Source: Sporomusaceae bacterium UBA7701
Lineage (GTDB): Bacteria; Bacillota; Negativicutes; Sporomusales; UBA7701
Direction of reading: 5' to 3'
Assembly: GCA_002482545.1 (NCBI GenBank)
Contig: DLGF01000020.1
Span: forward strand, 80,152 to 104,151
Length of the DNA: 24,000 nt
Position 1 is the first letter of the stretch, and every line of letters begins with the position of its first letter. The position numbers were made by a program, and so were the translations under genes. Below, piece by piece: positions 1,592 to 22,219 of this stretch. Below the pieces are notes generated by a model, which saw only the letters and a program-made list of their open reading frames with translations, was not told the origin of the DNA and did no database searches.

Positions 1592-1636
1592 GGAGGTTCA
1601 CCTCGTTTTCGTAGTTCGTTTACCAAACCGCCTGAT

Positions 1637-1665
1637 ATTATATAGTATCTTACCCCAAATGTACA
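1637..1665 (-). promoter_or_regulatory. Candidate sigma-70 promoter for the oxidoreductase gene
   Basis: On the - strand: TGTACA, 17 nt spacer, TATAAT, about 40 nt upstream of the start codon. Confidence 0.3.
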
Positions 1666-1688
1666 GCGGAAAATTGCCCGCAGCCAAA

Positions 1689-1716
1689 AACGGAGGAAGC
1701 GCTCGCTTCCTCCGTT
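1689..1716. other. Perfect 13+13 nt palindrome/hairpin at the left edge of the phage-derived block
   Basis: aacggaggaagcg-ct-cgcttcctccgtt, sitting between the host gene promoter region and the first phage gene. Confidence 0.4.
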
Positions 1717-1742
1717 CCATTTCGTACCTGGGAGGTGGTTCG

Positions 1743-2066
1743 ATGAACGCTGGGCAGGACAAACGCCGGCAGCCGGGAAAGGGAGCCGGTCCGGCTCCGC
1801 CGGGGCGGGCGGACGCGGAAGAGGCCGGAGGGCTTCCGGCTTCGGCCCGGAAATACCGGGAACTGGTCAAAGAGAACACCGTCAGCGCCATCCGCACGGT
1901 GCTCGAAATCATGGAAACCGGCAAACCACAGGAGCGGCTGAAAGCGGCGGAAATTATCCTCGACCGGGCGCACGGCAGGCCGGCCCAGCCGGTAGACGCC
2001 GAGGTGAGCGGGAAGGTCAAGGTCGACATCCTCCTGCCGCCCGGTATGGATGATCTCTTAGGATGA
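1743..2066 (+). CDS. Putative terminase small subunit-like phage protein
   Basis: SD GGAGGTGG precedes ATG 1743. Its stop overlaps the TerL start (ATGA at 2063-2066). The motif RLKAAEIILDRAHGRP resembles the RLKAAE..LDR.(W/Y)GKP motif I recall from small phage packaging proteins. The ORF-track start at 1563 is unlikely. Confidence 0.5.
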   Translation: MNAGQDKRRQPGKGAGPAPPGRADAEEAGGLPASARKYRELVKENTVSAIRTVLEIMETGKPQERLKAAEIILDRAHGRPAQPVDAEVSGKVKVDILLPPGMDDLLG

Positions 2067-2931
2067 AGCTGGATCTGTCGCGGATCAACCCCAAGCAGGT
2101 CGAGTTTTTCCGGGCCAGGGCCCGGCACGTCGCCTACGGCGGGGCCCGGGGCGGGGGAAAGTCCTGGGCCATGCGGATGAAGTTCACGGCCCTGGCGATC
2201 CAGTATCCCGGCCTCAAACTGCTGCTCCTCCGGCGCACCCTGCCGGAACTCAGGGAGAATCACCTGCTGCCCTTGCTCGCCCTCCTGACCGGGTTCGCCA
2301 AATACAAGGGCGAGGAGCGGGCCTTCCTGTTCCCCAACGGCAGCCGGCTCAAACTGGGCTACTGCGATAACGAGAAGGACGTATTCCAGTATCAGGGGCA
2401 GGAATACGACGTGGTGGGGTTTGAGGAAGCCACCCTGTTCACCGAAGCGTCTACCGTGAACTTTACGGCTGCTGCGGCCCGGATGCCGGCGCCAGGGAAA
2501 CGGCCACCGAGGTGGCCAAGCGGGTGCGGGTCCTGGAACGGGGCGAGGAGGCGACGGGCTTTGCCGACCCGTCCATCTGGGCGCGGACCGGCCACGACGG
2601 CCCGACCATCGCCGAAGAGTTCGCCCTGCAGGGGGTGGGCTGGCAAAAAGCCGACAACGACCGGCTTCAAGGCAAAATGCAGGTGCATCTCCGGCTGAAG
2701 GAAGGAAAAATCAAAATCTTCGAAACCTGCCGGCACCTGATCCGCACCTTGCCGCCCCTGGTCTACGACCGGCACCGGCCGGAAGACGTGGATACGACCC
2801 AGGAAGACCACGCCTATGATGCGCTCAGGTACGAGCTGATGTCCCGGCCCTGGGCGCCCGAGGGAACCAAGAAACGGCCCTATGACGAGTGGGAAGAAGA
2901 CGAAGACCGCAAAACTTGGATGGGGTCCTGA
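2063..2931 (+). pseudogene. Terminase large subunit, internally deleted and frameshifted
   Basis: Frame A (2063 to ~2447) has Walker A GGARGGGKS and Walker B-like YDVVGFEEA. A different frame, open from 2425, continues VYRELY...FADPSIWARTG...QEDHAYDALRYELM, the C-terminal RNaseH-type nuclease motifs. The segment normally lying between Walker B and VYRELY is missing. Confidence 0.8.
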
Positions 2932-2943
2932 GGGAGTGAGAAG

Positions 2944-4755
2944 ATGGACGAAGCTCAAAATACCGCCGGCGCTGCCGAAAAACTCCGCAGCTATTTCAGG
3001 CAGGCGGTCGAACACCAGAAAAAATGGCGGGAGAAGGCCCGGGAAGACTACGGGTTCTACACCGGCGACCAGTGGAACAGCGCCGACCTCGGCGCGCTGA
3101 AGGAGCAGCAGCGGCCCGCCATAACCATCAACAAAATCAAGCCGCTGATTCAACTGCTGTCCGGCTGGCAGCGGCTTAACCGCTACGAGCCGGATTTTCT
3201 CCCCCGCACCGCCGGCGACCTGGAGCTCTGCAAGGTCCGCAAGGGCGTGACCAAGTTCGTTTTCGACCGCAACGACTATGAATATAAGGAAAGCCGGATC
3301 TTTTTCGACGGCATCGTCTGCGGCCGGGGGTGGCTGTCCGCCGAGTACGAATGGAACTACGAGTCGCTAGAAGGCGACATCGTGCTCCGGCGGCTGTCCC
3401 CCTTCGATATGTACGTCGACCCGGAGGCCAGGGAGCCGGACCTCAGCGACGCGGAATACGTCTGCCGGGCCAAATGGGTGACCAAGGAAAAGATCAAAGA
3501 CGTATATCCCGAGCATCAGGACGCCGTCGAGGCGTTCGCCAGGAAATACGCCGAGGACGAGCCGCCGGACAAAGCCGGCGCCGAAAGCCTGTGGTATTCG
3601 CGGGAGACCAAAAAATGCCGCCTGGTGGAGATCTGGTACAAGGAGCATTACGCCAAGACCCTTTATATCCTGCCCGACGGCCGCGCGGCGGCGGACGGGC
3701 AGGCCGAAGCCGCCCTCCTCCTTGCAGGCGCGCGGCAAATCCGGCTGCCGCTCACCAAAATGAAATTCGCCACGCTGCTGGGCGACCTCATCCTGGAACA
3801 AGGCGACAGCCCCTACCGCCACAACGATTTTCCCTTTGTGCCCTTTATCGCGCAATACACCGGCGAATGCGAACCGGAAAACGATATCCAGGGCATCATC
3901 CGCAGCCTCAAGGACCCCCAGCGGGAGATCAACAAGCGGCGCAGCCAGTCGCTGCACATCCTGAACACCACCGCCAACCCCATCTACTGGGTCCGGGAAG
4001 GCGCCCTGCCGCCCGGCGATTTCCAGCGGTTCAAGGACAAAGGGGCGATTGCCGGCGGCGTGTTCAAATTCGCCACGGAAAAGCCCGTCCGGGAGGAAGC
4101 CGCCCAATTCCCGGCGGCCCTGGCCCGGATGGAAGACGTGTCCACCGGCGACCTGCGGCAGATTTCGGGCATCAACCCGGAAATGCTCGGCGAAGCCATG
4201 CCCAGCGGCACGAGCGGCAAAGCCATCGAGCTTCGCCAGCGCCAGTCGGTGACCCAGATCGCGCCGCTCTTCGACAATCTCCGGCTGAGCAAGAAACGGC
4301 TGCTGTATCTTCTCTGGGGGGAACCGGGCAAGCCCGGCCTCATCCCCCAGTACTACAGCGAAGCCAAGGTCATCCGCATCACCGGCGACGACGGCAAGCC
4401 GGCCTTCCTGGCCGTCAACCAGCCGGAGGTCGACCCCGCCGGCCGGCCGACCGGGCGCATCCTCAACGACCTGTCGGCCGGGGAATTCGACATCGTCGTC
4501 GCCGACGCCCCGTCGACGCCGACCCAGCGCATTGCCCAGTACTACGCCCTGCTCGAAGCCGTCCAGGCCGGGGTAGCGATACCGCCGGACATCATCCTTG
4601 AAGCCTCCGACCTGCCGCAGAAGGAGGAGATCCGGCAACGGCTGCTGGCCGAACAACAAGCGGCCCTGCAATCAGCGCGGCAGCCGCAGCCGGGCCCCGT
4701 CAGGCGGGCCGGACCGCCGGGGACCTTCCCGGACGCCTCCGCGCCCCTGCTCTAG
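2944..4755 (+). CDS. Phage portal protein
   Basis: 603-aa intact ORF immediately after the terminase. The N-terminal signature YGFYTGDQW...LKEQQRPAITINKIKPLI is portal-like (podovirus/P22-type as I recall it). GC3-rich coding frame. Confidence 0.8.
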   Translation: MDEAQNTAGAAEKLRSYFRQAVEHQKKWREKAREDYGFYTGDQWNSADLGALKEQQRPAITINKIKPLIQLLSGWQRLNRYEPDFLPRTAGDLELCKVRKGVTKFVFDRNDYEYKESRIFFDGIVCGRGWLSAEYEWNYESLEGDIVLRRLSPFDMYVDPEAREPDLSDAEYVCRAKWVTKEKIKDVYPEHQDAVEAFARKYAEDEPPDKAGAESLWYSRETKKCRLVEIWYKEHYAKTLYILPDGRAAADGQAEAALLLAGARQIRLPLTKMKFATLLGDLILEQGDSPYRHNDFPFVPFIAQYTGECEPENDIQGIIRSLKDPQREINKRRSQSLHILNTTANPIYWVREGALPPGDFQRFKDKGAIAGGVFKFATEKPVREEAAQFPAALARMEDVSTGDLRQISGINPEMLGEAMPSGTSGKAIELRQRQSVTQIAPLFDNLRLSKKRLLYLLWGEPGKPGLIPQYYSEAKVIRITGDDGKPAFLAVNQPEVDPAGRPTGRILNDLSAGEFDIVVADAPSTPTQRIAQYYALLEAVQAGVAIPPDIILEASDLPQKEEIRQRLLAEQQAALQSARQPQPGPVRRAGPPGTFPDASAPLL

Positions 4756-6370: not shown

Positions 6371-6539
6371 GTTGGCCGTTACCACCACGGCCAGCTTCGC
6401 GCACCGCGATTTTTTGCCGTGGGGCAGGCCAAAGCCGGCTCGGGCTTCGCGTCAGCCTGACGTTAACTGCACGAAAACCCCATTTCGCGGACGACACCGC
6501 GCAACAACGAAAGCCCAACAAGCCCGTTAAAAGGCATGA

Positions 6540-7045
6540 TTGGCTATAATACCGAAATTGCCGTTATCGCACGGTGGAATGGCAGCGCATGGCAGCGCGT
6601 ATTCGGGGGATTTTCGCGACAAGATTGATATGTGGTCTGGCTCTGTTGCTGATATTCCTACAGGCTGGGTACTGGTAGATGGCTACAGCGTACGCACCCC
6701 GAAGGCGGCAATTATACCCCTCCTGACCTCCGAACAGGTTTATTGTCGGCGCTGGGCAGGATGATGGGACACATACGCCTGGAACAAATGGCATAGGTAC
6801 GGGGTATTATGCTCCGGGAGCTACAGGCGGCGAAGATAAGCATAGTTTAATCGGAAACGAGAACGGTCCTCATGCACATGGTGTAGGCGTAGACCTTCCA
6901 GGGTCTGCTGGACCCAATACTAATTGTTTTGCAAGCAACAAAGGTATAAGTGTTCAAGGTTATGTATCCACAAATTCTTCTGGTAGCGGCATAGCCCACA
7001 AAATAGACCTCTTACTATGCGCTGTGTTTCTTGTATAAATTATAA
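6540..7045 (+). pseudogene. Tail-fibre C-terminal tip (tail-collar-like), multiply frameshifted
   Basis: Three frames each carry a piece of one domain. Frame 1 (6540-6764): IDMWSGSVADIPTGWVLVDG. Frame 2 (6727-7038): NRFIVGAGQDDG...GGEDKHSLIGNENGPHAHG. Frame 3 (ending 7045): SYYALCFLYKL*. Together they match the I.mwsG..IP.GW..CDG...PDLR.RF.VGAG...H.H...PYYAL.FI.K pattern of phage fibre tips. Confidence 0.6.
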
Positions 7046-7741
7046 ACCTAAATAAAAATTCGTTTGTAAGTCTGCTTTGCGCGGAAACTGTAAAAATTCA
7101 GAATCATAGTTTCGCGTTTTTTTAAGTAGTAAAAACATCCCCCAAGCTGCCGAAGGAAAGACTTGGGCAAGGGGCCTTGCTATTAATGAAGGGAATGGAT
7201 AAAAGTTGCTGCCTCGGCGGCTCATTAATTCATAGCCGCCAGGAAAGCAAGAGTTAAGAAATTTTATAGTATCCTCCAAAGTATAGCCTCTAATATGGGC
7301 TGAGTTTATTTGTATTGAAGTTGGTTGTTGTCCTAATAGTAATAAAATACGATTATGCAAAGAAGCAAGATTTGGGACGCCAATAATCAGTTTCCCTCCT
7401 ATAGGCAACATTCGGGATATTTGATGAAAAATCCAAAAAAGTTCTTTAGTGTGTTCAAGAATTTGATTGGCAATTATAACATCGATAGATGAATCCGCAA
7501 ACGGATAAATATCGTTCTCAATGTTGATCTCTTCCACGCATATACTTTTGTTTTTTAAAACCTGAGCCGATGGCCCATAACACTCTATCGCAGATATAGT
7601 CGATGTTGGGTTTATCTCTCTGGCGATGTCTAAGTCGGCTCCGGAGCCGGCTCCAATATCAAGTACTGACCTATAAGGCATAGATTTATATAAATAATCT
7701 TTAATAATATGGCGCCCATAATTTAATTCACGATCTATCAT
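7040..7741 (-). CDS. Class I SAM-dependent methyltransferase (type 11 / small-molecule or glycan type, not an obvious DNA MTase)
   Basis: Motif I VLDIGAGSGADL, then VIIANQILEH and GGKLIIGVPN. SD AAGGAG lies 7 nt upstream of ATG 7741; the ORF-track start at 7783 lacks an SD. Strikingly AT-rich compared with the surrounding GC-rich genes, and on the opposite strand to them. Confidence 0.85.
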   Translation of the reverse strand: MIDRELNYGRHIIKDYLYKSMPYRSVLDIGAGSGADLDIAREINPTSTISAIECYGPSAQVLKNKSICVEEINIENDIYPFADSSIDVIIANQILEHTKELFWIFHQISRMLPIGGKLIIGVPNLASLHNRILLLLGQQPTSIQINSAHIRGYTLEDTIKFLNSCFPGGYELMSRRGSNFYPFPSLIARPLAQVFPSAAWGMFLLLKKTRNYDSEFLQFPRKADLQTNFYLGL

Positions 7742-7782
7742 TATATATCTCCTTAGTTGGTATAAATAGTTGGTATAAATCA

Positions 7783-7791
7783 ATTATACCA
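7783..7791 (-). promoter_or_regulatory. Extended -10 promoter (TGGTATAAT) for the methyltransferase
   Basis: The - strand reads tttttTGGTATAATtg about 40 nt upstream of ATG 7741. The 5' UTR contains a 13-nt tandem direct repeat, agttggtataaat x2 on the + strand at ~7754-7779. Confidence 0.55.
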
Positions 7792-7811
7792 AAAAAAGGG
7801 CAGGTGAGACC

Positions 7812-9570
7812 ATGCCAAAACAATTACCCGTGACGGCTCCGGATAGGGGCATCAATAAGTATCTGCCGAAGAACCTCATCGACGACCGGGCCTGGAGCGA
7901 CGGCAACAACGTGCATTTCGGCGTCGGATATGCGGAGAAGGTCGGCGGGTGGAAGGAGTTTTTGAACCGTCCCGTCCCTTGGCAGGCGTCCACGGCTTAC
8001 AGCCCGGGCGCTTATATTATGCCCAGCTCTCCTACCGGACACGTCTATCAATGCACGACCGAGGGCACAACCGGTTCCGTGGAACCGGTGTGGCCGGCCA
8101 CCGCCGGCGATACAGCGGCGGACGGCACCGCCGGCTGGACGAATGTGGGAGTCAACCAGCTCAGCGGGATTATTATGGCAATGGACAATTATTATCTGTT
8201 CAACGGCAACAGTTATCTGATGGCCGTCACCACCACCCATTGTTACCGCTACGACCCCGACGCCAATACTTTTGTCGACATCACCAGCGGCACGCCGCTG
8301 AACGGCACGAGCGAGCACCCGGTCATCACCGAAAACGCGCAGAACTGGTTTGTTTTCACTAACGGCGTCGATCCGGTGAAGTACTGGGACGGCGACTTGG
8401 CCCACACCATCGCCGATCTGCCGGGGCTCGACGATGTCGAGGGCGGGGCGACTTCGGTCCGCTGCAAAACGCTCCTCTATTTTCAGAATTTCCTCCTGCT
8501 GGGCGGCACGACGGAGAACGGCACTCCTTTTCCCCAGCGCATCCGGTGGAGCTGTATCGGCGATATCGCCAAATGGAAAAACGTCGCCGGCGACATATCC
8601 CGGTCGGAGGCCGGGTACGGCGACCTGACCGACGACGTGTCCTGGGTGGTCGGCCTTCGCCCGCTGGGCAATTATGTGGCGGTGTATAAGGAGCGCGCCA
8701 TTCAACTCATGAATTACGCCGGAGGGGCGACCATCTGGAACAAGTGGCCGGCATTCATCGGCACCGGGCTGCTTTCGGCCAAGGCGCTGGTCGACCTGGG
8801 AGACGAACACATCTTTGTGGGCAACGACAATATTTACAGCTTCAACGGCCGGGAGCCGAGCATCGCCGGCGACGATGCGGCCAAGGAGTTCTTCCGCGTC
8901 CTGGACCCGGACAAATACGGCCTTATCGCGGGTTTTTACGTCGAGGAGGTGCCGGAACTTTGGTTTGCCTTTCCATCGACTTCCAGCCCGGACGGCCACC
9001 CGGACAAGGCCATTGTCTACAACACCGACACCAAAGCATGGTCGATGCGCGATCTGCCGATGACGGCCTTCGGGTATTACAACCGGCGGGGAGACGGCGT
9101 ATGGGATGCCGACGACGATACCTGGGACAATCATAGCACCGAGTGGGATGCCAGTATAAATCTCGATAACGCGCCGATCAACCTGGCGGGGGGGCGCGGA
9201 CGGCGGCATTTATGTGTTCGAGGGCAACGCCAAGGACGGGGCTTCCGTGCCCATCGACAGTTTCCTGACCACCAAGCTGTTCGATTTCGGCGCGCCGGAT
9301 AAAATCAAGAGGCTCCTCAGGATACAGTTCATGATATCCCGCGAGGGGCCTTACTATTTGCCGGTGTATGTCGGGACGGCGGCCAACGTGGACGAGCCGG
9401 TGACGTGGCACGGGCCGTACAATATGAGCCTGGACAAGACGAGCCCGCCGTGGGTCGATGTGGATGTGTCGGCCCGGTATCTGTGCCTTCGCATGGGCAC
9501 CGCGGGCGCGGACGAGCCGTGGCGGCTGACCGGCTACATCCTATATTACGAACTCAGGGGTGGTTACTGA
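7812..9570 (+). pseudogene. Large phage tail/adaptor structural protein (~586 aa if repaired), frameshifted at a G7 tract
   Basis: Frame 1 (7812-9302) reads ...DNAPINLAGG, then nonsense. Removing one G from GGGGGGG (9188-9194) gives ...INLAGGADGGIYVFEGNAKDGASVPIDSF..., joining seamlessly to ORF 9214-9570. The stop overlaps the next gene's ATG. Structural role is inferred from size, position and repeated beta-strand-like motifs. Confidence 0.75.
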
Positions 9571-10205
9571 TGGCGATACCGCAACTCCCTCAGACGCCGA
9601 ATGTCGGGCCGGAGGTGCCGAATACCCTCTGGAAGTGGCTGATCGAGATGGGGAACCGGCTGCGGCAACTGATCGATTTCGCCAATAAGCCTGTTGCGGC
9701 CGGGGTTCCCGCGCATGCCCCGACCCACGCCAGCGGCGGCGGCGACGTGCTGACGCCGTCGGATATCGGGGCGGCTCCGGCGTTTCGCGGTTGCCGAATC
9801 TACAATGAAAGCGGCGGGTCCCAAAGCATAGCGGCAGCAACCAACACGAAGGTTGCCTTTAATACCACCGCTTTTGACACGAATGGTTTTTATGATTCAA
9901 CCACTGATAAGATCGTTATTCCCGCAGGCGTGTCATATGTGGAATTGACCGCAGAAGTAAACTGGACGGGAACATATACGGCAGCAAATTCAAGACGGCT
10001 GGCAGCCATAACAAAAAATGGCGGCAATGTCGCTTTGTCGGCGTGTTCGGCTTCCAACGGGAATACATATCTAAATGTGTCCACCGGACCGATTTCCGTG
10101 TCAGCAGGGGATTATTTTGAATTGTTCGTCTTGGAAAACGATACTGCAGCAAAAACAATCACGCAGGATACTATTACATTTTTGTCGATGAAGGTGCTGG
10201 CATGA
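9570..10205 (+). CDS. Tail fibre protein with a C1q/TNF-like C-terminal domain (start at ATG 9570, not 9405)
   Basis: ATGA overlap with the upstream stop. The motif HAPTHASGGGDVLTPSDIGAA is the H..tH..GG.D.i.p..IGA motif common in phage fibres. The C-terminal ~130 aa (RIYNESGGSQSIAAATNTKVAFNTTAFDTNGFYD...GDYFELFV) looks like a jelly-roll head domain. DNA composition becomes AT-richer from ~9830. Confidence 0.7.
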   Translation: MAIPQLPQTPNVGPEVPNTLWKWLIEMGNRLRQLIDFANKPVAAGVPAHAPTHASGGGDVLTPSDIGAAPAFRGCRIYNESGGSQSIAAATNTKVAFNTTAFDTNGFYDSTTDKIVIPAGVSYVELTAEVNWTGTYTAANSRRLAAITKNGGNVALSACSASNGNTYLNVSTGPISVSAGDYFELFVLENDTAAKTITQDTITFLSMKVLA

Positions 10206-10537
10206 TGGACCTGGCGCAAATGATCGATGACTTTTGCCGGCGCGCGCCCGGCGACTACACACCGGAGCAAATTATCGCCGCCATAAAAGACAATCACATC
10301 CTTGCCGATGATGATTGTTTTATTGTTTTTGCGGCGGTGCAGGACGAAATCCATATGCTTTTCCCCTATGCCCCGCGCGGGAAGTCGATAGAGGCGGTTC
10401 GCCGCAAGTTGGAAGATTTGGCTAGGAGCAACGGGTATAAACGCATTCAGATCATTACGGACCGCGAAAAGGCGTTCGTGCGCAAATTTAAGGACTATCG
10501 CCCGATAGGAGTACTTTTCGAAAAGGAGCTGATCTAA
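10202..10537 (+). CDS. Hypothetical phage protein (111 aa), weak GNAT motif-A-like segment
   Basis: ATGA overlap with the upstream stop. The segment PRGKSIEAVRRKLEDLARSNGYKRIQIITDREKAFVRKF resembles the acetyl-CoA-binding core of GNAT folds, by eye only. Confidence 0.6.
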   Translation: MMDLAQMIDDFCRRAPGDYTPEQIIAAIKDNHILADDDCFIVFAAVQDEIHMLFPYAPRGKSIEAVRRKLEDLARSNGYKRIQIITDREKAFVRKFKDYRPIGVLFEKELI

Positions 10538-11278
10538 TTGGGAAGCCTGTTCGGCAGCAAAACGACAACGACTTCCAAGCAGACCCCGTTTTCCGGCAAG
10601 CAAAAGGACTGGTACGAAGGGTTTCAGCCTTACCTCATGGGGCGGGTCAACAACCCCATCCGCTACGGCGGCGAGACTGCCGCGCCGATCAATCAGACCC
10701 AGTCGGACGCCATCGGCAAGCTGCAGGACAGCGCCGCTAACCGGACGCTGCAGGACTATGCGGAAGGGGCGTATATCGACCCCATGAGCAATCCTTATGT
10801 GACGGCGCAGGCCGACGCCATCCGGCAGGCCGGGCAGGAAGCCTGGGGAGAGCAGGGACGGCAGGTCAACGATTTGTTCAACAAAAACAGCTTCTGGGGC
10901 GGCAGCGCCCATCAGGACCAAGTGGCCAAGACCCAGAAGGATGTCAACCAGTCTACCCAAAACTCCCTGGCCAGTCTCTACGGCAGCGCTTACAATTCCG
11001 GGGTAAACCAGATGCTGAATGCCCAGGGCGCCCGGCAGAGCGCGGCCGAGGCTCTGTTGAACGCGGGCAACACGGAGTATGGCATCGCCGACACCAAGGC
11101 CCAGCGGGACCTGGAGCTGTTCTTCCGGGAACAGGGGCTGGATGAGCAGACCATCCAGGATTACCTCAGCTATTTGGGGCTGGGCAAGAATCCGACCCAA
11201 ACCCAGACGCAAAGCAGCAACGGCCTGGGCGGAGTTTTAGGGTCGCTGGCCGGCGGCTGGGCGAGTACGTGGAAGTGA
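10538..11278 (+). CDS. Hypothetical virion-internal/ejection-type protein (Gln/Ala/Asn-rich, 246 aa)
   Basis: TTG start with SD AAGGAG 9 nt upstream. GC3-rich frame. Low-complexity helical composition and its position in the tail/internal-protein block. Confidence 0.65.
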   Translation: MGSLFGSKTTTTSKQTPFSGKQKDWYEGFQPYLMGRVNNPIRYGGETAAPINQTQSDAIGKLQDSAANRTLQDYAEGAYIDPMSNPYVTAQADAIRQAGQEAWGEQGRQVNDLFNKNSFWGGSAHQDQVAKTQKDVNQSTQNSLASLYGSAYNSGVNQMLNAQGARQSAAEALLNAGNTEYGIADTKAQRDLELFFREQGLDEQTIQDYLSYLGLGKNPTQTQTQSSNGLGGVLGSLAGGWASTWK

Positions 11279-11290
11279 GGTGTTTGAATT

Positions 11291-12052
11291 ATGGCAATAT
11301 CCTTTGCGGATGCCTTTGCCCAGGCGTATGGGCAGGGAATGCAGCGGCGGTGGCTGCAAGAACAGGAGGAAGCGGAGCGCAAGCGGCAAAACGAAGGGGC
11401 CAAGGCGGTTTTGGAGCTCATCAACTCCATGGGCCGGCAGCAGGCCAATGCGGACGCTTCCAGCGGGCTAAATCAGGCCGTATCCGGGTTTAATGCGCTT
11501 AACCCCGATAAGGGCGCGCCGGATTTTTCGTTTCAGACGCCTGACCTTACGCAGCGCCCGGGCGGTAACTGGCAAAGCCCGACCGGCAGCAGCAGTTTAG
11601 CCGGTTTGGCGCAGAGCACTTTCGGCGGGACTCAGCCGCAGTCAGGCAGCCTTGTTTCATTGATGCCGAAAGTCGAGGCCCCCAAATATGATGATGCTTC
11701 GATGTACGGCACGATGGCTAAGGCGCTGGGGCAGGGTGTGGATTATTCGCTTGCGGCGTCGATTATCCCCGGGTATTTTGAAAGGCAAAAGGCTGAAAAA
11801 CTGAAGAATGAACAGCCCGGTGCATTCAAGGAGGAACGGGCATTCTACACGCCGGAAAAGCAAAAGGAGATCAGGGCGGCGGACGGATACGGCGAGGCCC
11901 ATGGCCCGAACCGGCACGGCGGTGGTGCACAGGGAACTGTCAATGCGCAGCAGATTGATGGAATTGTAGCCCAAATTAAAGCGGAAAATCCTGATGCCAC
12001 ATATGGAGAGATTTTCCAATATCTCTATAGCGCATTCGGATATGGTCGGTAA
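11291..12052 (+). CDS. Hypothetical virion-internal protein (253 aa)
   Basis: SD GAGGTG upstream of ATG 11291. Coding-like GC3. No recognisable catalytic motif. Confidence 0.65.
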   Translation: MAISFADAFAQAYGQGMQRRWLQEQEEAERKRQNEGAKAVLELINSMGRQQANADASSGLNQAVSGFNALNPDKGAPDFSFQTPDLTQRPGGNWQSPTGSSSLAGLAQSTFGGTQPQSGSLVSLMPKVEAPKYDDASMYGTMAKALGQGVDYSLAASIIPGYFERQKAEKLKNEQPGAFKEERAFYTPEKQKEIRAADGYGEAHGPNRHGGGAQGTVNAQQIDGIVAQIKAENPDATYGEIFQYLYSAFGYGR

Positions 12053-12064
12053 AGGGGTGATAAA

Positions 12065-13633
12065 ATGCCTAGTTATCCAGAATGGCTAAATTCCTTCCTT
12101 GCTGGAATTAAGCCATGGAAACAGCAACCGGATGAAGAAGCCGCGAAGGTGACTCTTTCTTTGCTGGGCGGCACTGGGCCGAGAGGATTGGCGAAAGACA
12201 GCGGCTCTAACCCAACGCTACCGGCCACTGGCGGCTCCGGGCCGAGAGGGCTGGCGGAAGACAGCGGCTCTAACCCAACGCTACCGGCTACCGGCGGCTC
12301 CGGGCCGGGAGGGTTGGCGAAGGACAGCGGCTCTAACCCAACGCTACCGGCTACCGGCGGCTCCGGGCCGGGAGGGTTGGCGCAGGACATCGGCTTCACC
12401 CCGAAATTTGCCGATCTAGTAAGGGACTTCAGCGAGTGGAGGCAGGGACGAGGGGAGAACTTTCCCGGACTCGTTTACAATATCGGCGAAAACGCAATCG
12501 ATTCTACCGGTAATTGGGCCAAAGTCGCTGTACAAGGTGCGAGGGAGCAGATCAAGCAGGAACGCACGCTCCGCAAAATCGCGGTGGTGGATGAGTTCGG
12601 CAACGCCATCCCGCGTCCCGGCGTCAGTCCTGAAGATGTGGCGGCGCAAGCGGCTCTGGTCAAGCGAGCCCACACCAATTTCATCAACGAAACCCTGAAG
12701 CCCGCGGCGTATATCGCGGGCTTTGCCAATCCCATCGTGGCCCTGCCGTTTATCGCCGCCGACGCTAAAGCTTTGTACGATCAGGGCGGGGCCGGTAATG
12801 TGGTGAAGGAGTTTACCGGCTATACCGCACTGAGGAACGCGACGCAGAACCCCGAAGAGTTTGGCCGGCGATTCTACGAAAAGCCGCTAACGACCGCCGC
12901 CGAATTCGTGCCGGCCGTTTTGCTGGCTAAAGGCGTATATAGCGGGATTCGCGGCAGGGCTGTACCGAGAGAGACGGCAAAAGGAGTAAAACCGGCAGAG
13001 GAAGTTGCACCGAAAACAAGGCCGGAGCAGGCGGCCGCCACGCCTCAAGATCGCAGCGAAATAAGGGCAATATTTGAAAAGTCGAATGAGCTAACGGCAG
13101 TGATTGATGAAGGCTATAAAGTAAGGCCTGTGCAAAAAATAGTCAAAACCGGTGAGCTTGACCAAGTTGAAATACAAGCAATGAAACAAAAAACCGGCAT
13201 GGATTTAGCCGGTTATAGTCGTGAAATAACCTCTGAAAAAATTCGTCATGCAGTTAAAAAACATGGTGGATCTGCAGAAGCGGCACGGGGACAATTACCG
13301 TTGACAAGAAACGATTTTTTGAAAGTCCCCGAAATCGCCCGGGCTGAAAATGTTGTTAAAGTGGACGTAGGAAAAAGACAGCAGCCTCTCATTATATATG
13401 AAAAACCCGTTAACGGTTACCTCTATGTTGTGGAGGAAGTGTTAACAGGCAAGAAAACGTTGCAGTTTTTGTCTATGCGAAAACTAAAGAGGTCTTCTGC
13501 GCGACCAAATGCCGGGGAACCCGGCCCCGTCTCACACGTCCAAGACGTTCGCAGCCTGACCTCCACTTCTAATATATATAAATCAGAAGGCAAAGTCAAT
13601 GGCAATCCGGACCGTAGCCCTCCTTCCACCTGA
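12065..13633 (+). CDS. Polyvalent ejection-type protein: N-terminal region, 21-aa tandem repeats, hydrophobic central segments, C-terminal PBECR-like (barnase/EndoU/colicin-E5/RelE-like) nuclease module
   Basis: SD AAGGGGTG before the ATG. Repeats at 12167-12403. Hydrophobic stretches AAYIAGFANPIVALPFIAA and TTAAEFVPAVLLAKGVY. C-terminal motif ITSEKIRHAVKKHGGSAEAARGQLPLTRNDFLKVPEI...IIYEKPVNGYLYVVEEVL, as I recall it from PBECR-type modules of phage/ICE polyvalent proteins. Confidence 0.7.
   Translation: MPSYPEWLNSFLAGIKPWKQQPDEEAAKVTLSLLGGTGPRGLAKDSGSNPTLPATGGSGPRGLAEDSGSNPTLPATGGSGPGGLAKDSGSNPTLPATGGSGPGGLAQDIGFTPKFADLVRDFSEWRQGRGENFPGLVYNIGENAIDSTGNWAKVAVQGAREQIKQERTLRKIAVVDEFGNAIPRPGVSPEDVAAQAALVKRAHTNFINETLKPAAYIAGFANPIVALPFIAADAKALYDQGGAGNVVKEFTGYTALRNATQNPEEFGRRFYEKPLTTAAEFVPAVLLAKGVYSGIRGRAVPRETAKGVKPAEEVAPKTRPEQAAATPQDRSEIRAIFEKSNELTAVIDEGYKVRPVQKIVKTGELDQVEIQAMKQKTGMDLAGYSREITSEKIRHAVKKHGGSAEAARGQLPLTRNDFLKVPEIARAENVVKVDVGKRQQPLIIYEKPVNGYLYVVEEVLTGKKTLQFLSMRKLKRSSARPNAGEPGPVSHVQDVRSLTSTSNIYKSEGKVNGNPDRSPPST
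12167..12403 (+). repeat. 63-bp in-frame tandem repeat, 3 full copies plus one partial (GGSGP(R/G)GLA(K/E)DSGSNPTLPAT)
   Basis: Copies at 12167-12229, 12230-12292 and 12293-12355, with a partial copy at 12356-12403. Copies 2 and 3 are almost identical at the DNA level. Confidence 0.95.
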
Positions 13634-13857
13634 CTGCATTAAAGAATTATAAAGAGGCTCTCACTGTCACCGGTGGGGGTTACGGTTCGCGCGGTGCTAC
13701 GCATCCCGAGCATATGCGTACTCGTCCCGGAACGGAGGAAGCCTCTCTAATAAAGGACATTTCCGGTCCTTCTGCCAATACCTCCGAAAGACGATCTCAA
13801 GGGCAAGAAAGCGCAGAGCAAGTAAGGCACCATGCTATGCAGGCCGAGGGGCGGCCA

Positions 13858-14334
13858 ATGATAAAAAAAGAGGTAAAGAATTCCTCGTCACTAAGTCAGG
13901 AGAAGGTGGATTCTTTTGTCGACGAGTCGTTGGTGCGACACGGTCCCCGCAGGTATTTGCCGCTGTCTATCGTTAGACCGGAAGAGGCGGCACGAATAAA
14001 AGAACTTACCGGAGTGGACACCACGGGGTTCAGGCATGAAATCAACAATCACGACTTAAGGCACGCAATCAAACAGCATGGCGATCCTGTCAGAGAGGCA
14101 GCTGTTGGACAACTGCCAATAACACAAAAGGACTTGAAGATGATTCCTCAAGTCCTCAGAGAGTATGATCAAATTTTACCAGGCAGCCCCAATGTTAACG
14201 GTAAGTCGGTCCGCTATGTAAAACGGGTGAACGGCCATATTATCGTCGCGGAAGTCTTACGCGAAGAACGCAAAACAATGGCGGTAAAAACAATATGGAA
14301 GAAGCCCGCTAGCGTAAGTCATGACACCCCGTGA
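13858..14334 (+). CDS. Stand-alone PBECR-like nuclease-module protein, paralogue of the C-terminus of 12065-13633 (the ORF is open from 13714)
   Basis: INNHDLRHAIKQHGDPVREAAVGQLPITQKDLKMIPQV...VRYVKRVNGHIIVAEVL aligns colinearly with the upstream protein's C-terminal domain. SD GAGGGG lies 6 nt before ATG 13858. Confidence 0.65.
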   Translation: MIKKEVKNSSSLSQEKVDSFVDESLVRHGPRRYLPLSIVRPEEAARIKELTGVDTTGFRHEINNHDLRHAIKQHGDPVREAAVGQLPITQKDLKMIPQVLREYDQILPGSPNVNGKSVRYVKRVNGHIIVAEVLREERKTMAVKTIWKKPASVSHDTP

Positions 14335-14411
14335 AGGGATAATCCTTCCTTATACGTCCACCTAGGGAGCACAGCCCCTACCACCCGAACGTAGCGCGAC
14401 TTCTTCGAAAC

Positions 14412-14440
14412 ATTATACCCGAAATTAGCGAAACTATCAA
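14412..14440 (-). promoter_or_regulatory. Near-consensus sigma-70 promoter pointing antisense into the 3' end of the PBECR paralogue
   Basis: - strand: TTGATA (14435-14440), 17 nt spacer, TATAAT (14412-14417). Confidence 0.3.
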
Positions 14441-14764
14441 CGGCGAAGGCGATCGCAGATGGAAAACATGAATAAACTACTGTTGGTAGAGCGCCCACCC
14501 CTACAGCCTTAACTCGGCCAAGGCTCCGATTTGTACGGTTCGCCCCAAAATGCCGAGGGGGGGAACCGCCCAGGGCGGTATAGGCAACAGTAGTTCCATC
14601 ACCAATATAAATCCGTTCGTTCAAATAGTCAAGGAAACTCCCGACGGCATTCGCGGCGGACGGTTGGAAGCGGCTTCCAATCATTTTGGCGATAAGTTAT
14701 AATATTCATACAGGTTGTTTTAGGGACGGTTAGCCACACCCTTTTGCGAAAGGGGGTGGTGCTT

Positions 14765-14839
14765 ATGACTACATATGAGGCGTTGTCTTTTGCGATAGCA
14801 TTTGCCACGTTGATTGTGTTGATCATAAAAAAGAAGTAA
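14765..14839 (+). CDS. 24-aa holin-like small hydrophobic toxin (Hol-Tox-type peptide)
   Basis: MTTYEALSFAIAFATLIVLIIKKK*. Strong SD GGGGGTGGTG 3-4 nt... upstream (ATG 14765). The SD can pair with ccacaccc (14734-14741). Not in the ORF track because it is too short. Confidence 0.55.
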   Translation: MTTYEALSFAIAFATLIVLIIKKK

Positions 14840-15146: not shown

Positions 15147-15593
15147 ATGGAATACACACAGACGGAACTTAAGCTTTGGGCGGCCTGTTCCGCGGCGGGC
15201 GCGGCGCTGTCGTTTCTGATCGGCGGCTTTGACGCGCCGGTGAAGGCGCTCTTGGTGCTGATCGGCGTCGATTACGCCACCGGAATCCTCGCCGCCTGGA
15301 AAACGGGCATGCTGAGCAGCCAGCAGGGCTTTCACGGGCTAGGAAAAAAGGTCGCGATCGTCGCCATCGTGGCGTTTGCCAATATGCTGGATCTTTCGAT
15401 GGCGCTGAATCATACGCTGCGGTCGATGGCCATATTCGGGTTTGCCGGCATGGAGGGCATGAGCATCATTGAAAATGCCGACCGGGCCGGATACGGGGCG
15501 TATGTCCCGCAGTTTATCCGCGACAGGCTCCTGCAGCTCAGGCAGGAGAAGGGGCTTAGCCAGCCGGGAGGGAGCGACAAAAGCAAATGTTAG
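15147..15593 (+). CDS. Phage holin (holin_4_1 / toxin-secretion holin family)
   Basis: SD AGGAGG 7 nt before the ATG. Three hydrophobic helices plus the signature DYATGILAAWKTG...SSQQGFHGLGKKV...SIIENADRAG. Confidence 0.9.
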   Translation: MEYTQTELKLWAACSAAGAALSFLIGGFDAPVKALLVLIGVDYATGILAAWKTGMLSSQQGFHGLGKKVAIVAIVAFANMLDLSMALNHTLRSMAIFGFAGMEGMSIIENADRAGYGAYVPQFIRDRLLQLRQEKGLSQPGGSDKSKC

Positions 15594-16207
15594 GGAAATT
15601 GTCCAGCGTGTACGAAAGCAACGGCGATCCCGGCTGCATATCATCCGGCGCGGGAGACGCCGGCGGCGTGAGCTACGGGACCTATCAGCTCGCGACCAAT
15701 ACCGGCAGCGTGGATCGTTTTGTCCGATGGCTTAACGATAGCCATCATCCGGCAGGGATGGTTTTAAGCGGCAAACGCGCCGGCAGCCGGGAATTTTCGG
15801 CAGCCTGGAAATTCTGCGCGGAAAACTTGGCCGACTTCGGCGATATCCAGCACGAATATATCCGTCACCTATACTATGACCCTGCCGTGGCCGCGCTCAG
15901 GGACGCCTGCTGGCATCTCGAAAATCACCATGAAGTCATGAAAGATGTCGTGTGGAGCCGCGCCGTGCAGTACGGAACCGGCTACATCGTGGAGATGTTC
16001 GAGACCGCCGCCAAGCGCCTGGGGTATCCGAACCTGTCCTATGTGGACGCGCCGGACTTTGACGCGGCGATGATCCGCGCCATTTATCTGGAGGTCTGCA
16101 AGACGCCCGAATGGACCGGCGGGAGCCCGGCTTTACGCGCAGGGCTGTATGCCAGGTTCGAAAACGAATGCAGCGATGCCTTGGCCAGGTTGGGCCAATT
16201 TGCTTAG
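15587..16207 (+). CDS. Lysozyme-like endolysin (glycosidase superfamily; E...D-GG-SYG motif)
   Basis: Overlaps the holin stop. The N-terminal motif SVYESNGDPGCISSGAGDAGGVSYGTYQL resembles the catalytic Glu / Asp-Gly-Gly segment of chitosanase/lysozyme-like muramidases. Placement directly after the holin supports the call. Confidence 0.65.
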   Translation: MLGKLSSVYESNGDPGCISSGAGDAGGVSYGTYQLATNTGSVDRFVRWLNDSHHPAGMVLSGKRAGSREFSAAWKFCAENLADFGDIQHEYIRHLYYDPAVAALRDACWHLENHHEVMKDVVWSRAVQYGTGYIVEMFETAAKRLGYPNLSYVDAPDFDAAMIRAIYLEVCKTPEWTGGSPALRAGLYARFENECSDALARLGQFA

Positions 16208-19811: not shown

Positions 19812-19877
19812 AAATGTAAGAGTTGAATTATCGAAAGATTGAGTGTTTTTCAGAATGCCGGAAAGGGGATTGGTAAT

Positions 19878-20639
19878 ATGGCGCAAGAAAAAGTAGTAAG
19901 GCGGCTGGTAATTAAAGCTTTTCATATTCAAAACGCCGTTTTAGGAAAAGATAATGATGTAACCTGTGATGGGAAATTGACAATCCATGATGAAGTATTG
20001 CTGGAAATTCTTAAAGAAGAGCCAGCTGTCGCGAAGATCGACATTGCTATCATTCAACCCGGCGACTATGATCGGCATACCAATGCCATCCTGGATTTTA
20101 TCCCGCTTTCAACAAAAGTTTCGGGGAAATTGGGAGAGGGAGTTACCCATACGTTGACAGGAGTGTATTTCATGTTGACCGCCATTGATACAACGGGCAG
20201 GCAAGTAGCCCGATCGGGTTCTCCCTATGGATTGTTGAAAGACCATGTATGCCTGGGGAAAGCAGGCACCCCCAGCGCCGCCGATTACATCATAGCTTTT
20301 AATGTTACCCTGGATGGGGAAACCAGTCATACGCGAAATACTGTAACAGCCGCCCATCGGGCCTGCGATAGGTTTTGCCAGATATTTAGAAATAAGATGA
20401 AAAAATTCGATGGAAATAAATGTACGGAGCAACATGAATTTTTGGACAAAATAAAAGAAGCTAAATTCAGGGTGGCTATATTCAAACAAGTACCGGGGCA
20501 GGGAGCCATGTTTAACACCCATGTTTTTTCGCATGAACCTTCCGGCAATCTGAGCGGGAAATCCGTTATTGATATGGAAAATGTTCCGGTTGTCCTGACG
20601 CCTAATCAATATAGAGACGGCGCCCTGCGCGCCATGTAG
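19878..20639 (+). CDS. GrdE/PrdA-family (glycine/sarcosine/betaine/D-proline reductase) N-terminal-half homologue, PrdD-like
   Basis: VVRRLVIKAFHIQNAVLGKDNDVTCDGKLTIHDE...IIQPGD...GVTHTLTG... is colinear with the N-terminal (beta) part of GrdE/PrdA proproteins as I recall them. It ends ...YRDGALRAM*, where the proproteins carry their self-cleavage site. AT-richer than the flanks. Confidence 0.6.
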   Translation: MAQEKVVRRLVIKAFHIQNAVLGKDNDVTCDGKLTIHDEVLLEILKEEPAVAKIDIAIIQPGDYDRHTNAILDFIPLSTKVSGKLGEGVTHTLTGVYFMLTAIDTTGRQVARSGSPYGLLKDHVCLGKAGTPSAADYIIAFNVTLDGETSHTRNTVTAAHRACDRFCQIFRNKMKKFDGNKCTEQHEFLDKIKEAKFRVAIFKQVPGQGAMFNTHVFSHEPSGNLSGKSVIDMENVPVVLTPNQYRDGALRAM

Positions 20640-20656
20640 CAAAGGAGGGCTGGTTC

Positions 20657-21133
20657 ATGGGAGTAAGCGCGTCGACAAAGGAAACTACTTTGCATTATTT
20701 CCGGGATCCTTTGGTGAATTTAGTGGCGCAAGATGCAGATGTTGATTTGACTGGAATTGTAATTATCGGTGTGCCGCAGGATCAGGAGAGCAAAATACTG
20801 GCATCCGAATTGGCGGCCAATTGGGCGGAAGCCATGCGGTTGGACGGAGCGATCGTTACTACCGAAGGATGGGGAAACGACCATATCGATTTTGCAGAAT
20901 TGGTAGAGCTGTTGGCGGTGAGGGATATCGCAGTATCCGGGCTTAGCTTTATCGGCGGGGAAGGTTTTGTGGTTTCGAATGAATATATGGATACCATTGT
21001 TGATTTCAATAAATCCGAAGAAGGCTATGAGACCGGCCGGATCGGCGAGAACAATGCAGATTTGTTGGATGCGAAAAAAGCATTGGCGTTTTTAAAATTA
21101 AAGATGCAAAAGAAGAAAGGAATAAAACGATAG
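20657..21133 (+). CDS. GrdE/PrdA-family C-terminal (alpha-part) homologue, PrdE-like
   Basis: Consensus SD AAGGAGG. MGVSASTKE...RLDGAIVTTEGWGNDHIDF matches ...C-VSAC...LDGAIISQEGFGNPDTD of the processed alpha subunit. At 158 aa it has the PrdE size. Confidence 0.6.
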   Translation: MGVSASTKETTLHYFRDPLVNLVAQDADVDLTGIVIIGVPQDQESKILASELAANWAEAMRLDGAIVTTEGWGNDHIDFAELVELLAVRDIAVSGLSFIGGEGFVVSNEYMDTIVDFNKSEEGYETGRIGENNADLLDAKKALAFLKLKMQKKKGIKR

Positions 21134-21314: not shown

Positions 21315-21332
21315 TTAATTTGAATAATAAAA

Positions 21333-21425
21333 GAATCTATAGGCAAACTTATCGAAAGATAAGGACGCAAAGCTATGGGTCTACGGACAGAGGGTCTATG
21401 ATTGCCAGGTTGCATCCGATAGCGG
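21333..21425 (+). promoter_or_regulatory. c-di-GMP-I (GEMM-I) riboswitch aptamer
   Basis: uaGGCAAAcuuaucGAAAgauaaGGACGCAAAGCuaUGGGUCU...GCCAGGUUGC. It has the GNRA-capped first hairpin and the conserved GGCAAA / GGACGCAAAGC / GGGUCU / GCC.GGUUGC blocks. The second hairpin is atypical. Confidence 0.7.
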
Positions 21426-21473: not shown

Positions 21474-21577
21474 TCCTGAGAAGAATATCTTTAAGCAATC
21501 GTGTTAGGGGAATTGTATGGATTTGGGGATGTTATCGATGCCTATAGCCTGTGCACAGAAGTTTGAAAGGAGAATGT

Positions 21578-22219
21578 ATGCGTATTATAAAAATTCTGAT
21601 CATCGCGTGTCTGAGTGTACTTTTGACGGCTTGCGGAACAAACTTTTCTTCAGGAGCCGGGGATGCCGGCAACTCGCACGCAAGCAGGGATCCTAAGACG
21701 GAAACGGCGTCGGAGACTTCCCCAAATCAGGCGGCGACACCGGCGAAAACTCCCGGCAGAGTAGAGATATCTTTTGATTTCAATCGAAGCTTTAAAATGG
21801 CAAGCGATCAGTTGGCAGTATGGGTGGAGGACGAACAAGGAAACCATATCAGAACGCTGTTTGTCACCAAGTTTACGGCCAACGGGGGATATCGCCAACG
21901 GCCTGAATCGGTGCCCAACTGGCAGAGGGCTTTTCAGCCAGAGCAGGCAAATCGCGCTGTCTTTGACTCTATTGCCTCAGCGACCTTGCAAACGGGACGG
22001 ATTTCAGTAATCTGGGACTGCCTTGATCAAAACGGTGAAGCAGTTGCCGCCGGCCGCTATATTTATAAAGTGGAGGCAAATATAGAATGGCAAAAAGTCG
22101 ACTTATGGCAGGGGGATATTACCGTAGGCTCATCGCCTTCCCAGGCGGACGCCCGATTTGTGCAAGGCGACGGCAGTAAACTGCAAGCAGTGAGGGCTGC
22201 TTTTGTGCCCTCCAATTAA
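21578..22219 (+). CDS. Lipoprotein, DUF2271-like
   Basis: SD AAAGGAG. Lipobox SVLLTAC. DQLAVWVEDEQGNHIRTLFV...ATLQTGRISVIWDCLDQNGEAVAAGRYIYKVEA resembles the DUF2271 pattern (AvWied...tL..., ATr.pG....WdG.d..G..v..G.Y...vE). Confidence 0.6.
   Translation: MRIIKILIIACLSVLLTACGTNFSSGAGDAGNSHASRDPKTETASETSPNQAATPAKTPGRVEISFDFNRSFKMASDQLAVWVEDEQGNHIRTLFVTKFTANGGYRQRPESVPNWQRAFQPEQANRAVFDSIASATLQTGRISVIWDCLDQNGEAVAAGRYIYKVEANIEWQKVDLWQGDITVGSSPSQADARFVQGDGSKLQAVRAAFVPSN

Follow-up and report, generated by a model that had tools for sequence, protein, structure and literature searches.

Polyvalent proteins were named as a class by Iyer et al. (Iyer, Burroughs, Anand, de Souza & Aravind 2017, J Bacteriol, PMC5512222), who found PBECR modules, predicted metal-independent endoRNases, in the virion-associated members. 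They predicted that these proteins are packaged in capsids and then delivered together with the DNA, and reported the LPD38 domain to be confined to the phage-type members. The same work described heavy domain mosaicism and 'extensive duplications and rearrangements' of PBECR domains, for example in jhp1044-type proteins, in which several PBECR domains are duplicated and rearranged. A second system of effectors with proposed phage delivery, the MuF polymorphic toxins, belongs to temperate Firmicute phages (Jamet et al. 2017, BMC Biol, PMC5576092). Here, we analysed a 24,000-nt stretch of Sporomusaceae bacterium UBA7701 (contig DLGF01000020.1, positions 80,152 to 104,151; hereafter, the window), in which two neighbouring open reading frames (ORFs), ORF1 (12065-13633, 522 aa) and ORF2 (13714-14334, 206 aa in its longest form), each encode a PBECR3 module. 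We estimate a probability of about 75% that this region is the decayed, fragmented remnant of one large gene for a polyvalent virion protein with two PBECR3 modules, carried by a temperate phage with a P22-like portal. Mosaicism of this protein class is already in the literature, and the window copy is a new, degraded member of the family described in 2017. Positions are those of the window, and the two ORFs, their parts and the flanking phage genes described with them lie on the plus strand.

Both ORFs match the Pfam PBECR3 model (PF18812, 115 positions, curated gathering cut-off 30 bits). Module a (13169-13495, ORF1 aa 369-477) scores 56.6 bits (E 2.8e-15, model positions 7-111), and module b (13972-14313, ORF2 aa 87-200) scores 77.4 bits (E 1.1e-21, model positions 3-111). 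The PBECR-like modules that an earlier reading of the sequence alone (the sequence-only reading) had proposed in both ORFs are thus genuine, and they are colinear paralogs as it claimed, with 35% identity over 95 aa (E 2e-15). An additional, hidden module in a different frame was ruled out, as a six-frame search with the PBECR3 hidden Markov model (HMM) found only modules a and b in the window. In a five-sequence alignment with relatives, R-H, H-G, E, Q..T..D, K.VNG and E are invariant or nearly so; the motifs singled out earlier (RHAxKxHG, GQLPxTxxD and VNG) are likewise conserved across family members. RHA(V/I)K(K/Q)HG maps to model helix 51-61, and the S of FLSMRK in ORF1 and the T of VKTIWK in ORF2 map to the last strand, 126-136. 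All five sequences share the Arg, the two His and the flanking Lys, and each has either S or T at the Ser/Thr position. By this alignment, the four kinds of residue may have catalytic roles, and the modules are putative RNases, module a being a predicted metal-independent endoRNase. To our knowledge, no PBECR3 protein has been characterised biochemically, and no solved PBECR3 structure is detectable by sequence search.

The AlphaFold model of module a with its tail, built from an alignment limited to three sequences, has a mean pLDDT (predicted local distance difference test score) of 56, with 64-78 in the core, and shows helices followed by four strands. In a Foldseek comparison with the PDB, the top match was the RelE-like RNase toxin BrnT (E 0.02, probability 0.94), HigB2 and MqsR were also in the top four, and nothing reached E<=0.001. 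The model is consistent with the BECR fold. Module b is 43% identical to the PBECR3 region of a 1413-aa polyvalent protein of contig L003, and each module is as close or closer to the modules of other phages than to its partner in the window, which argues for separate acquisition rather than local duplication. The GC content of the modules is 0.44-0.49, against 0.58-0.61 in the flanking phage genes; for module a, the values are 0.44 and, in the phage DNA on its flanks, 0.59. These comparisons support the earlier view that the two modules are probably old and divergent, not the product of a recent duplication.

In close relatives, the two modules occupy a single reading frame. P0002, from the Logan contig L001 (98.6% identical to the window), has an unbroken frame that runs from module a through …EGKVNGNPGPQPPFHLTALKNYKEALTATGGGYGSRGATHPEHMRTRPGTEE… to module b, so that it holds two PBECR3 domains in one ORF, against one recognised effector domain per ORF in the window. 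A three-way DNA alignment locates the lesions that split the frame at 13609-13617, where the window has GG (13609-13610) instead of the GGG of L001 and TAG (13615-13617) instead of CAG. The junction is open in L001, L011 and L012 and split in the window, L002 and L013. Because ORF1 and ORF2 are one ORF in the three open contigs, ORF2 is the second module of a tandem and not the stand-alone cassette that it had been taken for. Sequencing error was ruled out as the cause of the split because two other datasets contain Logan contigs (L009, L010 and L013) with 100% identity to the window; these confirm the ORF1 sequence except 12225-12352, the interior of a tandem repeat where the contigs break. 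We infer that the fused state came first, since splitting takes one change and fusing takes both, and every intact member continues past the tail. Between the window and L001, 13493-13858 differs by six substitutions; read in the fused frame, each is non-synonymous or nonsense, and all fall in the tail or linker. The PBECR3 cores show 0 substitutions between the split and fused lineages, numbers too small for a test. The most plausible start of ORF2 is the internal ATG at 13858, with GAGGGG 6 nt upstream, which gives an ORF of 13858-14334; the gene caller chose the 158-aa form of ORF2 in L002. In the fused variant, a G at position 13858 makes this codon GTG (Val). Homology to the polypeptides of relatives begins at 13771-13813, 5' of this ATG.

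In relatives, PBECR1 and PBECR3 modules are followed by a recurrent tail of [ST]MWKKPS, 25-35 low-complexity residues and SLTSSTSNIxxxAATVK. Tail a (13496-13606) is a low-complexity linker of this kind, which ends in the junction motif LTSTSNIYKSEGKVN at 13556-13600 and which reads …RSLTSTSNIYKSEGKVNG. A tail HMM built without tail a recovered it at 13487-13603, and the first tail of the sequence-only reading is therefore real and recurrent. The junction motif also follows PBECR1 or PBECR3 modules in P0005, L003, L005, L006 and L002, and TSNI...VK had no match in the Pfam searches made here. Tail a is predicted to be disordered (AlphaFold pLDDT <40). The former inter-module linker (13634-13857) is partly intergenic now and is in-frame coding sequence in P0002. 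It contains 13714-13810, the stretch formerly read as an orphan tail. This stretch did not resemble tail 1 significantly in shuffling tests (ungapped p=0.09, full-length gapped p=0.20), was not matched by the tail HMM, and gave p=0.07-0.76 against five family tails in frameshift-aware peptide-to-DNA alignment. It is linker.

The second module has the remains of a tail of its own. Decayed tail b (14332-14456) includes the stop codon of ORF2 (TGA, 14332-14334) and continues as a remnant in three frames; tblastn and HMM alignments cross the stop codon into it. With frameshifts allowed, the DNA of 14335-14470 matches the tails of L005 and P0005 with scores of 44 and 49, compared with 23.3±5.1 and 21.9±4.3 for control windows, and 0/150 controls reached the observed values. 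The first piece, RDNPSLYVHLGST, is in the ORF2 frame (14335-~14375), the second, GAQPLPPERSATSS, is in the next frame (14366-14407), and the third, NIIPEISETINGEGD, is in the third frame (14409-14453). In addition, the DNA of 14384-14406 matches the L005 tail (p=0.008). Module b appears to have once had a complete tail, which is now interrupted by one nonsense codon and two frameshifts. After tail b, family homology stops, which marks the truncation point. The decayed tail noticed after the second copy is thus a true remnant, but its reported alignment to tail 1 is at the level of chance (p=0.7), and the frame given for it fits only the last piece, the other two lying in other frames. A direct comparison of tail a with the DNA after ORF2 also found no match (p=0.22). 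The TSNI...VK motif follows both window modules, yet the window tails share no significant similarity. On the minus strand of this region, a near-consensus promoter-like site (TTGATA-17-TATAAT, 11/12 matches, 14440-14412) and a 13-bp hairpin with a U-tract (14157-14119) would delimit an antisense RNA of ~300 nt opposite the 3' half of ORF2; the fold z-score is -2.66. This signal at 14440-14119 may be due to chance, as its TATAAT stems from Asn-Ile-Ile codons of tail b.

ORF1 begins with the canonical N-terminus of the family, MPSYPEWL...WKQQ, and it corresponds to the N-terminal part of a polyvalent ejection-type protein, followed by module a and its tail. A phmmer query with aa 100-350 in an exhaustive search of representatives showed that aa 134-313 (12464-13003) match the N-terminal ~200 residues of at least 20 proteins of 1100-1790 aa (E 3e-31 to 1e-4), with 27-46% BLASTP identity to the relatives. 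After this domain, the relatives carry PBECR1, PBECR3, SLT, NlpC/P60 or ART-PolyVal/DUF3990 modules. Word-index protein searches missed even identical database proteins when queried with the ORF1 module and tail or with ORF2, and a full ORF1 word-index query returned two near-identical proteins, so that the other homologs come from the exhaustive search. Scans of GTDB genomes by protein alignment and by exact 36-mer gave nothing, and metagenome scans gave one partial locus. The AlphaFold2 model of the N-domain is all-helical (pLDDT 76) and has no structural match in the PDB or BFVD. The domain contains one moderately hydrophobic stretch, AAYIAGFANPIVALPFIAA (19-residue Kyte-Doolittle mean 1.65). 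This is what stands of the hydrophobic, channel-forming segments that had been proposed for ORF1, and the channel-forming idea is therefore weak. In Pfam at E<=1, no match was obtained for the N-domain, for the HExxH region of L005 or for the C-terminal 433 aa of a 1073-aa protein of L002. We do not claim an MPTase domain at the L005 HExxH region, which lacks a Pfam match even at that threshold.

A 63-bp tandem repeat lies in frame in the N-terminal linker of ORF1 (12167-12395, 3.6 copies, Tandem Repeats Finder score 367, 92% matches). It encodes a 21-aa unit, GGSGPxGLAKDSGSNPTLPAT, which occurs only once in L002, in diverged form. The copy number may be variable or mis-assembled, since short-read contigs that are otherwise identical to the window end within the repeat, at 12224 and 12353.

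LPD38 (PF18857) is present at the C-terminus of 11 of the 15 relatives scanned. ORF1 and ORF2 have no LPD38 match, and tblastn with L005, L003 and P0005 detected no remnant in the window of the HExxH/LPD38 body, that is, the residues beyond ~640. The window locus has PBECR3, a virion/late-gene location and a predicted delivery in common with the phage-type polyvalent proteins that combine PBECR and LPD38 (PMC5512222). In addition, the ORF1 N-domain is homologous to the N-termini of such proteins, and the relatives of the window carry LPD38. The window copy differs in being split and truncated, without LPD38 and the HExxH body. Like the mosaic proteins of the jhp1044 type in Helicobacter prophages, the family has several divergent PBECR modules per polypeptide that are duplicated and rearranged between strains, and a jhp1044-like protein of a Helicobacter cinaedi phage is among the few tblastn matches of ORF1. 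However, the scaffold is of the DdrB-ParB type there and of the LPD38 type here, host and phage type differ, and the similarity is confined to the PBECR module (~34% identity over 100 aa).

The locus lies among virion and late genes. Upstream, in the ejection-protein block, the 246-aa product of 10538-11278 is 47% identical to that of L005 7842-8585, which matches phrog_4287 'DNA ejection protein' (E 1.8e-10); the window protein has no family match of its own. The next gene, 11291-12052 (253 aa), occupies the position that in relatives is taken by a gene for 350-372 aa, ahead of the polyvalent gene. Its product is 96% identical to the 350-aa protein of L002 over aa 1-174 and then diverges, and its N-terminus is 42% identical to the 372-aa protein of L005. 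The gene order is shared with the IMG/VR contigs L004, L005 and L006, in which homologs of 10202-10537 (40% identity) and 10538-11278 come first, followed by a 369-372-aa gene (weakly similar to 11291-12052 in L005) and then, at the position of the locus, by a single gene for 1633-1641 aa. In L005, the 1641-aa product has PBECR3 and LPD38, and an amidase gene is next downstream. Downstream in the window are lysis genes (15147-16207), namely a holin (15147-15593, PF05105, E 2.8e-29) and a VgrG3_C-like muramidase (15587-16207, PF21277, E 5.6e-37), and the window also encodes a P22-like portal (E 8e-138). With an ejection-protein ortholog on one side, a holin and endolysin on the other and such a portal, gene position and family membership support the ejection-type label, as a prediction. 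From gene position and the work of Iyer et al. 2017, the protein would be packaged and ejected. A mini-ORF at 14744-14839 (Met at 14765), between the decayed tail and the holin, matches Pfam Hol_Tox, a putative holin-like toxin, just above the cut-off (E 4.7e-5), and a hairpin over its ribosome-binding region is not unusually stable (z=-1.2).

Podovirus E proteins (P22 gp7/gp20/gp16 and T7 gp16) have a comparable gene position, and the phage here has a P22-like portal. T7 gp16 carries a transglycosylase module, and some members of the present family have SLT or NlpC/P60 wall-degrading modules in the effector position. No sequence or structural similarity to the E proteins was detected, and the analogy is one of position only. 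Both the MuF polymorphic toxins and the present family are virion-associated, combine a constant N-domain with variable toxin-like modules and have been proposed to be delivered by phage (PMC5576092). Unlike those toxins, ORF1 has no Phage_Mu_F domain in Pfam or PHROGs, the locus has no immunity gene, the ejection block is next to lysis genes rather than in the DNA-packaging module, and the modules are internal or in tandem rather than a single C-terminal toxin. No immunity gene was found between or after the modules, in agreement with the sequence-only reading; after ORF2 come the decayed tail, an unsupported reverse ORF without family match and the Hol_Tox mini-ORF. Immunity genes are not expected for this protein class because its effectors are aimed at the infected host.

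Taken as a remnant, the locus is best explained as follows. Intact relatives encode one protein of 1400-1650 aa, between the ejection-protein genes and the lysis genes, laid out as a conserved helical N-domain, an exchangeable effector slot, a short disordered tail ending in TSNI...VK, a long conserved body with HExxH and a C-terminal LPD38. Such proteins would travel in the capsid and enter the cell along with the DNA. In the ancestor of the window gene, two divergent PBECR3 modules would have stood in tandem, both followed by a tail. The C-terminal body would then have been lost from the gene, the second tail would have gained a stop codon and two frameshifts, and in the window lineage a 1-nt deletion and a CAG-to-TAG change would have cut the modules apart.

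Mutational decay explains the present arrangement best because each variant has lesions of its own and the prophage is defective. The window has the 1-nt deletion and the TAG at the junction. L002 shares these junction lesions; in addition, its frame shifts by 1 nt near ORF1 codon 174, and its N-terminus is degraded and lacks an ATG. L001 and L012, in which the junction is open, have a 14-nt deletion (12844-12857). In the rest of the element, TerL (2063-2698) is 211 aa long and has the ATPase half only, and one inserted nucleotide at 9188 disrupts a structural gene whose L002 counterpart encodes 585 aa. A homolog of an L005 structural gene is split in the window (9576-9776 and 6624-6879), and the first four L005 genes (649-4322), 5' of the gene for a 693-aa structural protein, have no homolog in the window. 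The simplest reading would be a defective, rearranged prophage in which this gene is drifting, and the window copy is probably non-functional.

Several points weigh against a history of splitting, truncation and decay. The order from fused to split comes from parsimony and family architecture rather than from an outgroup, and the assignment of the lost C-terminal body to the LPD38 type comes from the relatives alone. The BECR fold is only weakly supported by the model of module a, with its pLDDT of 56 and best Foldseek E of 0.02. L002 has an extra gene that combines PBECR1 and PBECR3 with a different C-terminal domain, which points to a history more complex than simple truncation. Moreover, the 522 codons of ORF1 are uninterrupted and no invariant residue has been lost from either module, and therefore residual expression of one or both modules is possible. 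ORF2 has a usable ATG and a Shine-Dalgarno-like GAGGGG, and the same ATG is GTG in the fused lineage, so the split could be a tolerated or even functional two-gene state.

In such a state, ORF1 would be a shortened ejection protein that delivers one RNase module, and ORF2 would be a solo PBECR3 protein made from the ATG at 13858, perhaps serving the lysogen, for example in the exclusion of other phages; the split would be tolerated or adaptive. The open ORF1 frame with its canonical N-terminus, the conserved residues of both modules and the start codon with its GAGGGG all fit this possibility, phages are known to encode PBECR proteins of the solo kind (Iyer et al. 2017, PMC5512222), and the split is seen in three independent datasets. 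However, the same element lacks head genes, its terminase is truncated and one of its structural genes is frameshifted, and a different disabling lesion of this gene occurs in every variant. The tail after ORF2 is visibly decayed, and the six substitutions out of six in 13493-13858 that are non-synonymous or nonsense fit relaxed constraint on tail and linker. We therefore regard a functional pair of genes as unlikely, although it is the strongest of the alternatives, and give a residual or co-opted function a similarly low chance.

A second alternative, put forward in the sequence-only reading, is a locus like those of polymorphic toxins, in which a delivered toxin is accompanied by silent orphan modules and tails that recombine to switch the C-terminal effector. 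Points in its favour come from the relatives. L004 (identical to P0003) carries PBECR1 and L005 carries PBECR3 in the same slot, and more distant members have SLT, NlpC/P60 or ART modules there, so the expectation that related phages would have different modules at the same junction was correct. In 30-column windows, L004 and L005 share 80-100% identity over most of columns 1-420 and 630-1659, except for one window at 63% (columns 361-390). Identity falls to 10-23% across columns ~450-600, with 40-47% in two flanking windows, and rises again precisely at TSNIIDxAATVKSD, the motif with which tail a of the window closes. By these alignments, effector swapping is real at the family level, with the TSNI...VK tail motif as its right boundary. 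A genuine orphan fragment is also found in L002, which is 98-99.8% identical elsewhere but has an extra 3.4 kb (L002 5850-9932 compared with window 11812-12514). There, 6394-9615 is the extra gene for a 1073-aa protein with PBECR1, PBECR3, a tail, an orphan last-strand-plus-tail fragment (HMM i-E 2.3e-6) and a 430-aa C-terminal domain without family match. A duplicated 27-aa linker borders the fragment on either side and looks like a recombination scar; this internal duplication was missed by BLASTP and is visible by eye and by HMM.

In the window itself, the lower GC content of the modules relative to the flanking phage genes also speaks for it, but ORF2 is contiguous with ORF1 in relatives and is thus an expressed tandem module, not a silent orphan, and the proposed orphan tail was not significant in three tests. 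Immunity genes are absent between and after the modules. The window modules appear to share no block of DNA-level homology that could serve for switching, as they share 35% protein identity and their tails are unmatched (p=0.22). Like orphan toxin-immunity arrays of contact-dependent inhibition (CDI) and Rhs systems, the family exchanges effector modules at a conserved junction motif while the delivery domain in front of them stays constant; however, immunity genes and silent orphans are lacking here, the second cassette belongs to the same ORF, and the fragmentation is decay. The succession of module and tail, orphan tail, module and decayed tail dissolves into a frame continuous in relatives, a linker and decay, so that swapping survives as a property of the family and not as a local array. 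An array of switchable cassettes at this locus is largely refuted, and we consider it very improbable.

Hardly credible is recoding, by which the fused protein would still be made through a programmed frameshift with readthrough or through reassignment of TAG to Gln, as known in some gut phages: a relative does have Gln (CAG) exactly at the window TAG, but TAG terminates three bona fide genes of the element (portal, holin and endolysin), which rules out reassignment, the two lesions would need two separate events within 10 nt and no slippery heptamer occurs at CAATCCGGACCG, which rules out a programmed frameshift, and the window has no suppressor tRNA.

With the remnant of one polyvalent protein gene as the preferred account of the window, the swap in relatives is of interest in its own right. 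PBECR1 and PBECR3 are exchanged between phages otherwise ~90% identical, with sharp boundaries and a conserved right junction motif, which offers a handle for studying the diversification of injected phage effectors and for engineering effector slots. We put forward, tentatively and as a possibility less favoured than its opposite, that the disordered tail with SLTSSTSNIxxxAATVK is a dedicated junction element, which would serve as the fixed right boundary of cassette exchange (PBECR1, PBECR3 and possibly others) between phages and perhaps also as a HExxH cleavage site that frees the effector after ejection. If so, phage ejection proteins would diversify like polymorphic toxins, with defined cassette borders and without immunity genes, and the tandem modules of the window, each with its own tail, would be the fossil of one cassette insertion. 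As the window illustrates, what looks like an array of toxin-like modules in a prophage can be the remains of one giant ejected protein, which gene callers and readers are prone to mistake for separate cassettes.

Some features elsewhere in the window may be of use to others. A stand-alone NlpC/P60 gene (4935-5696, 253 aa) has a product 45% identical to the NlpC/P60 module in the effector slot of P0013 and P0016, and this module could exist both free and fused. Among the structural genes, 7001-7800 is an island of low GC content (0.36-0.45, against ~0.6 nearby) with a reverse-strand S-adenosylmethionine (SAM) methyltransferase gene (7040-7783), where L002 has a glycosyltransferase and Methyltransf_21. 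Two adjacent ORFs at 19839-21133 match separate parts of component B of glycine/sarcosine/betaine reductase (profile positions 2-100 and 243-337) and may represent a split gene or a selenoprotein-type interruption. In the bacterial flank, a c-di-GMP-I (cyclic di-GMP) riboswitch (21332-21417, 72 bits, E 1e-12) lies upstream of a gene for a DUF2271/FlgD_ig protein (21551-22219).

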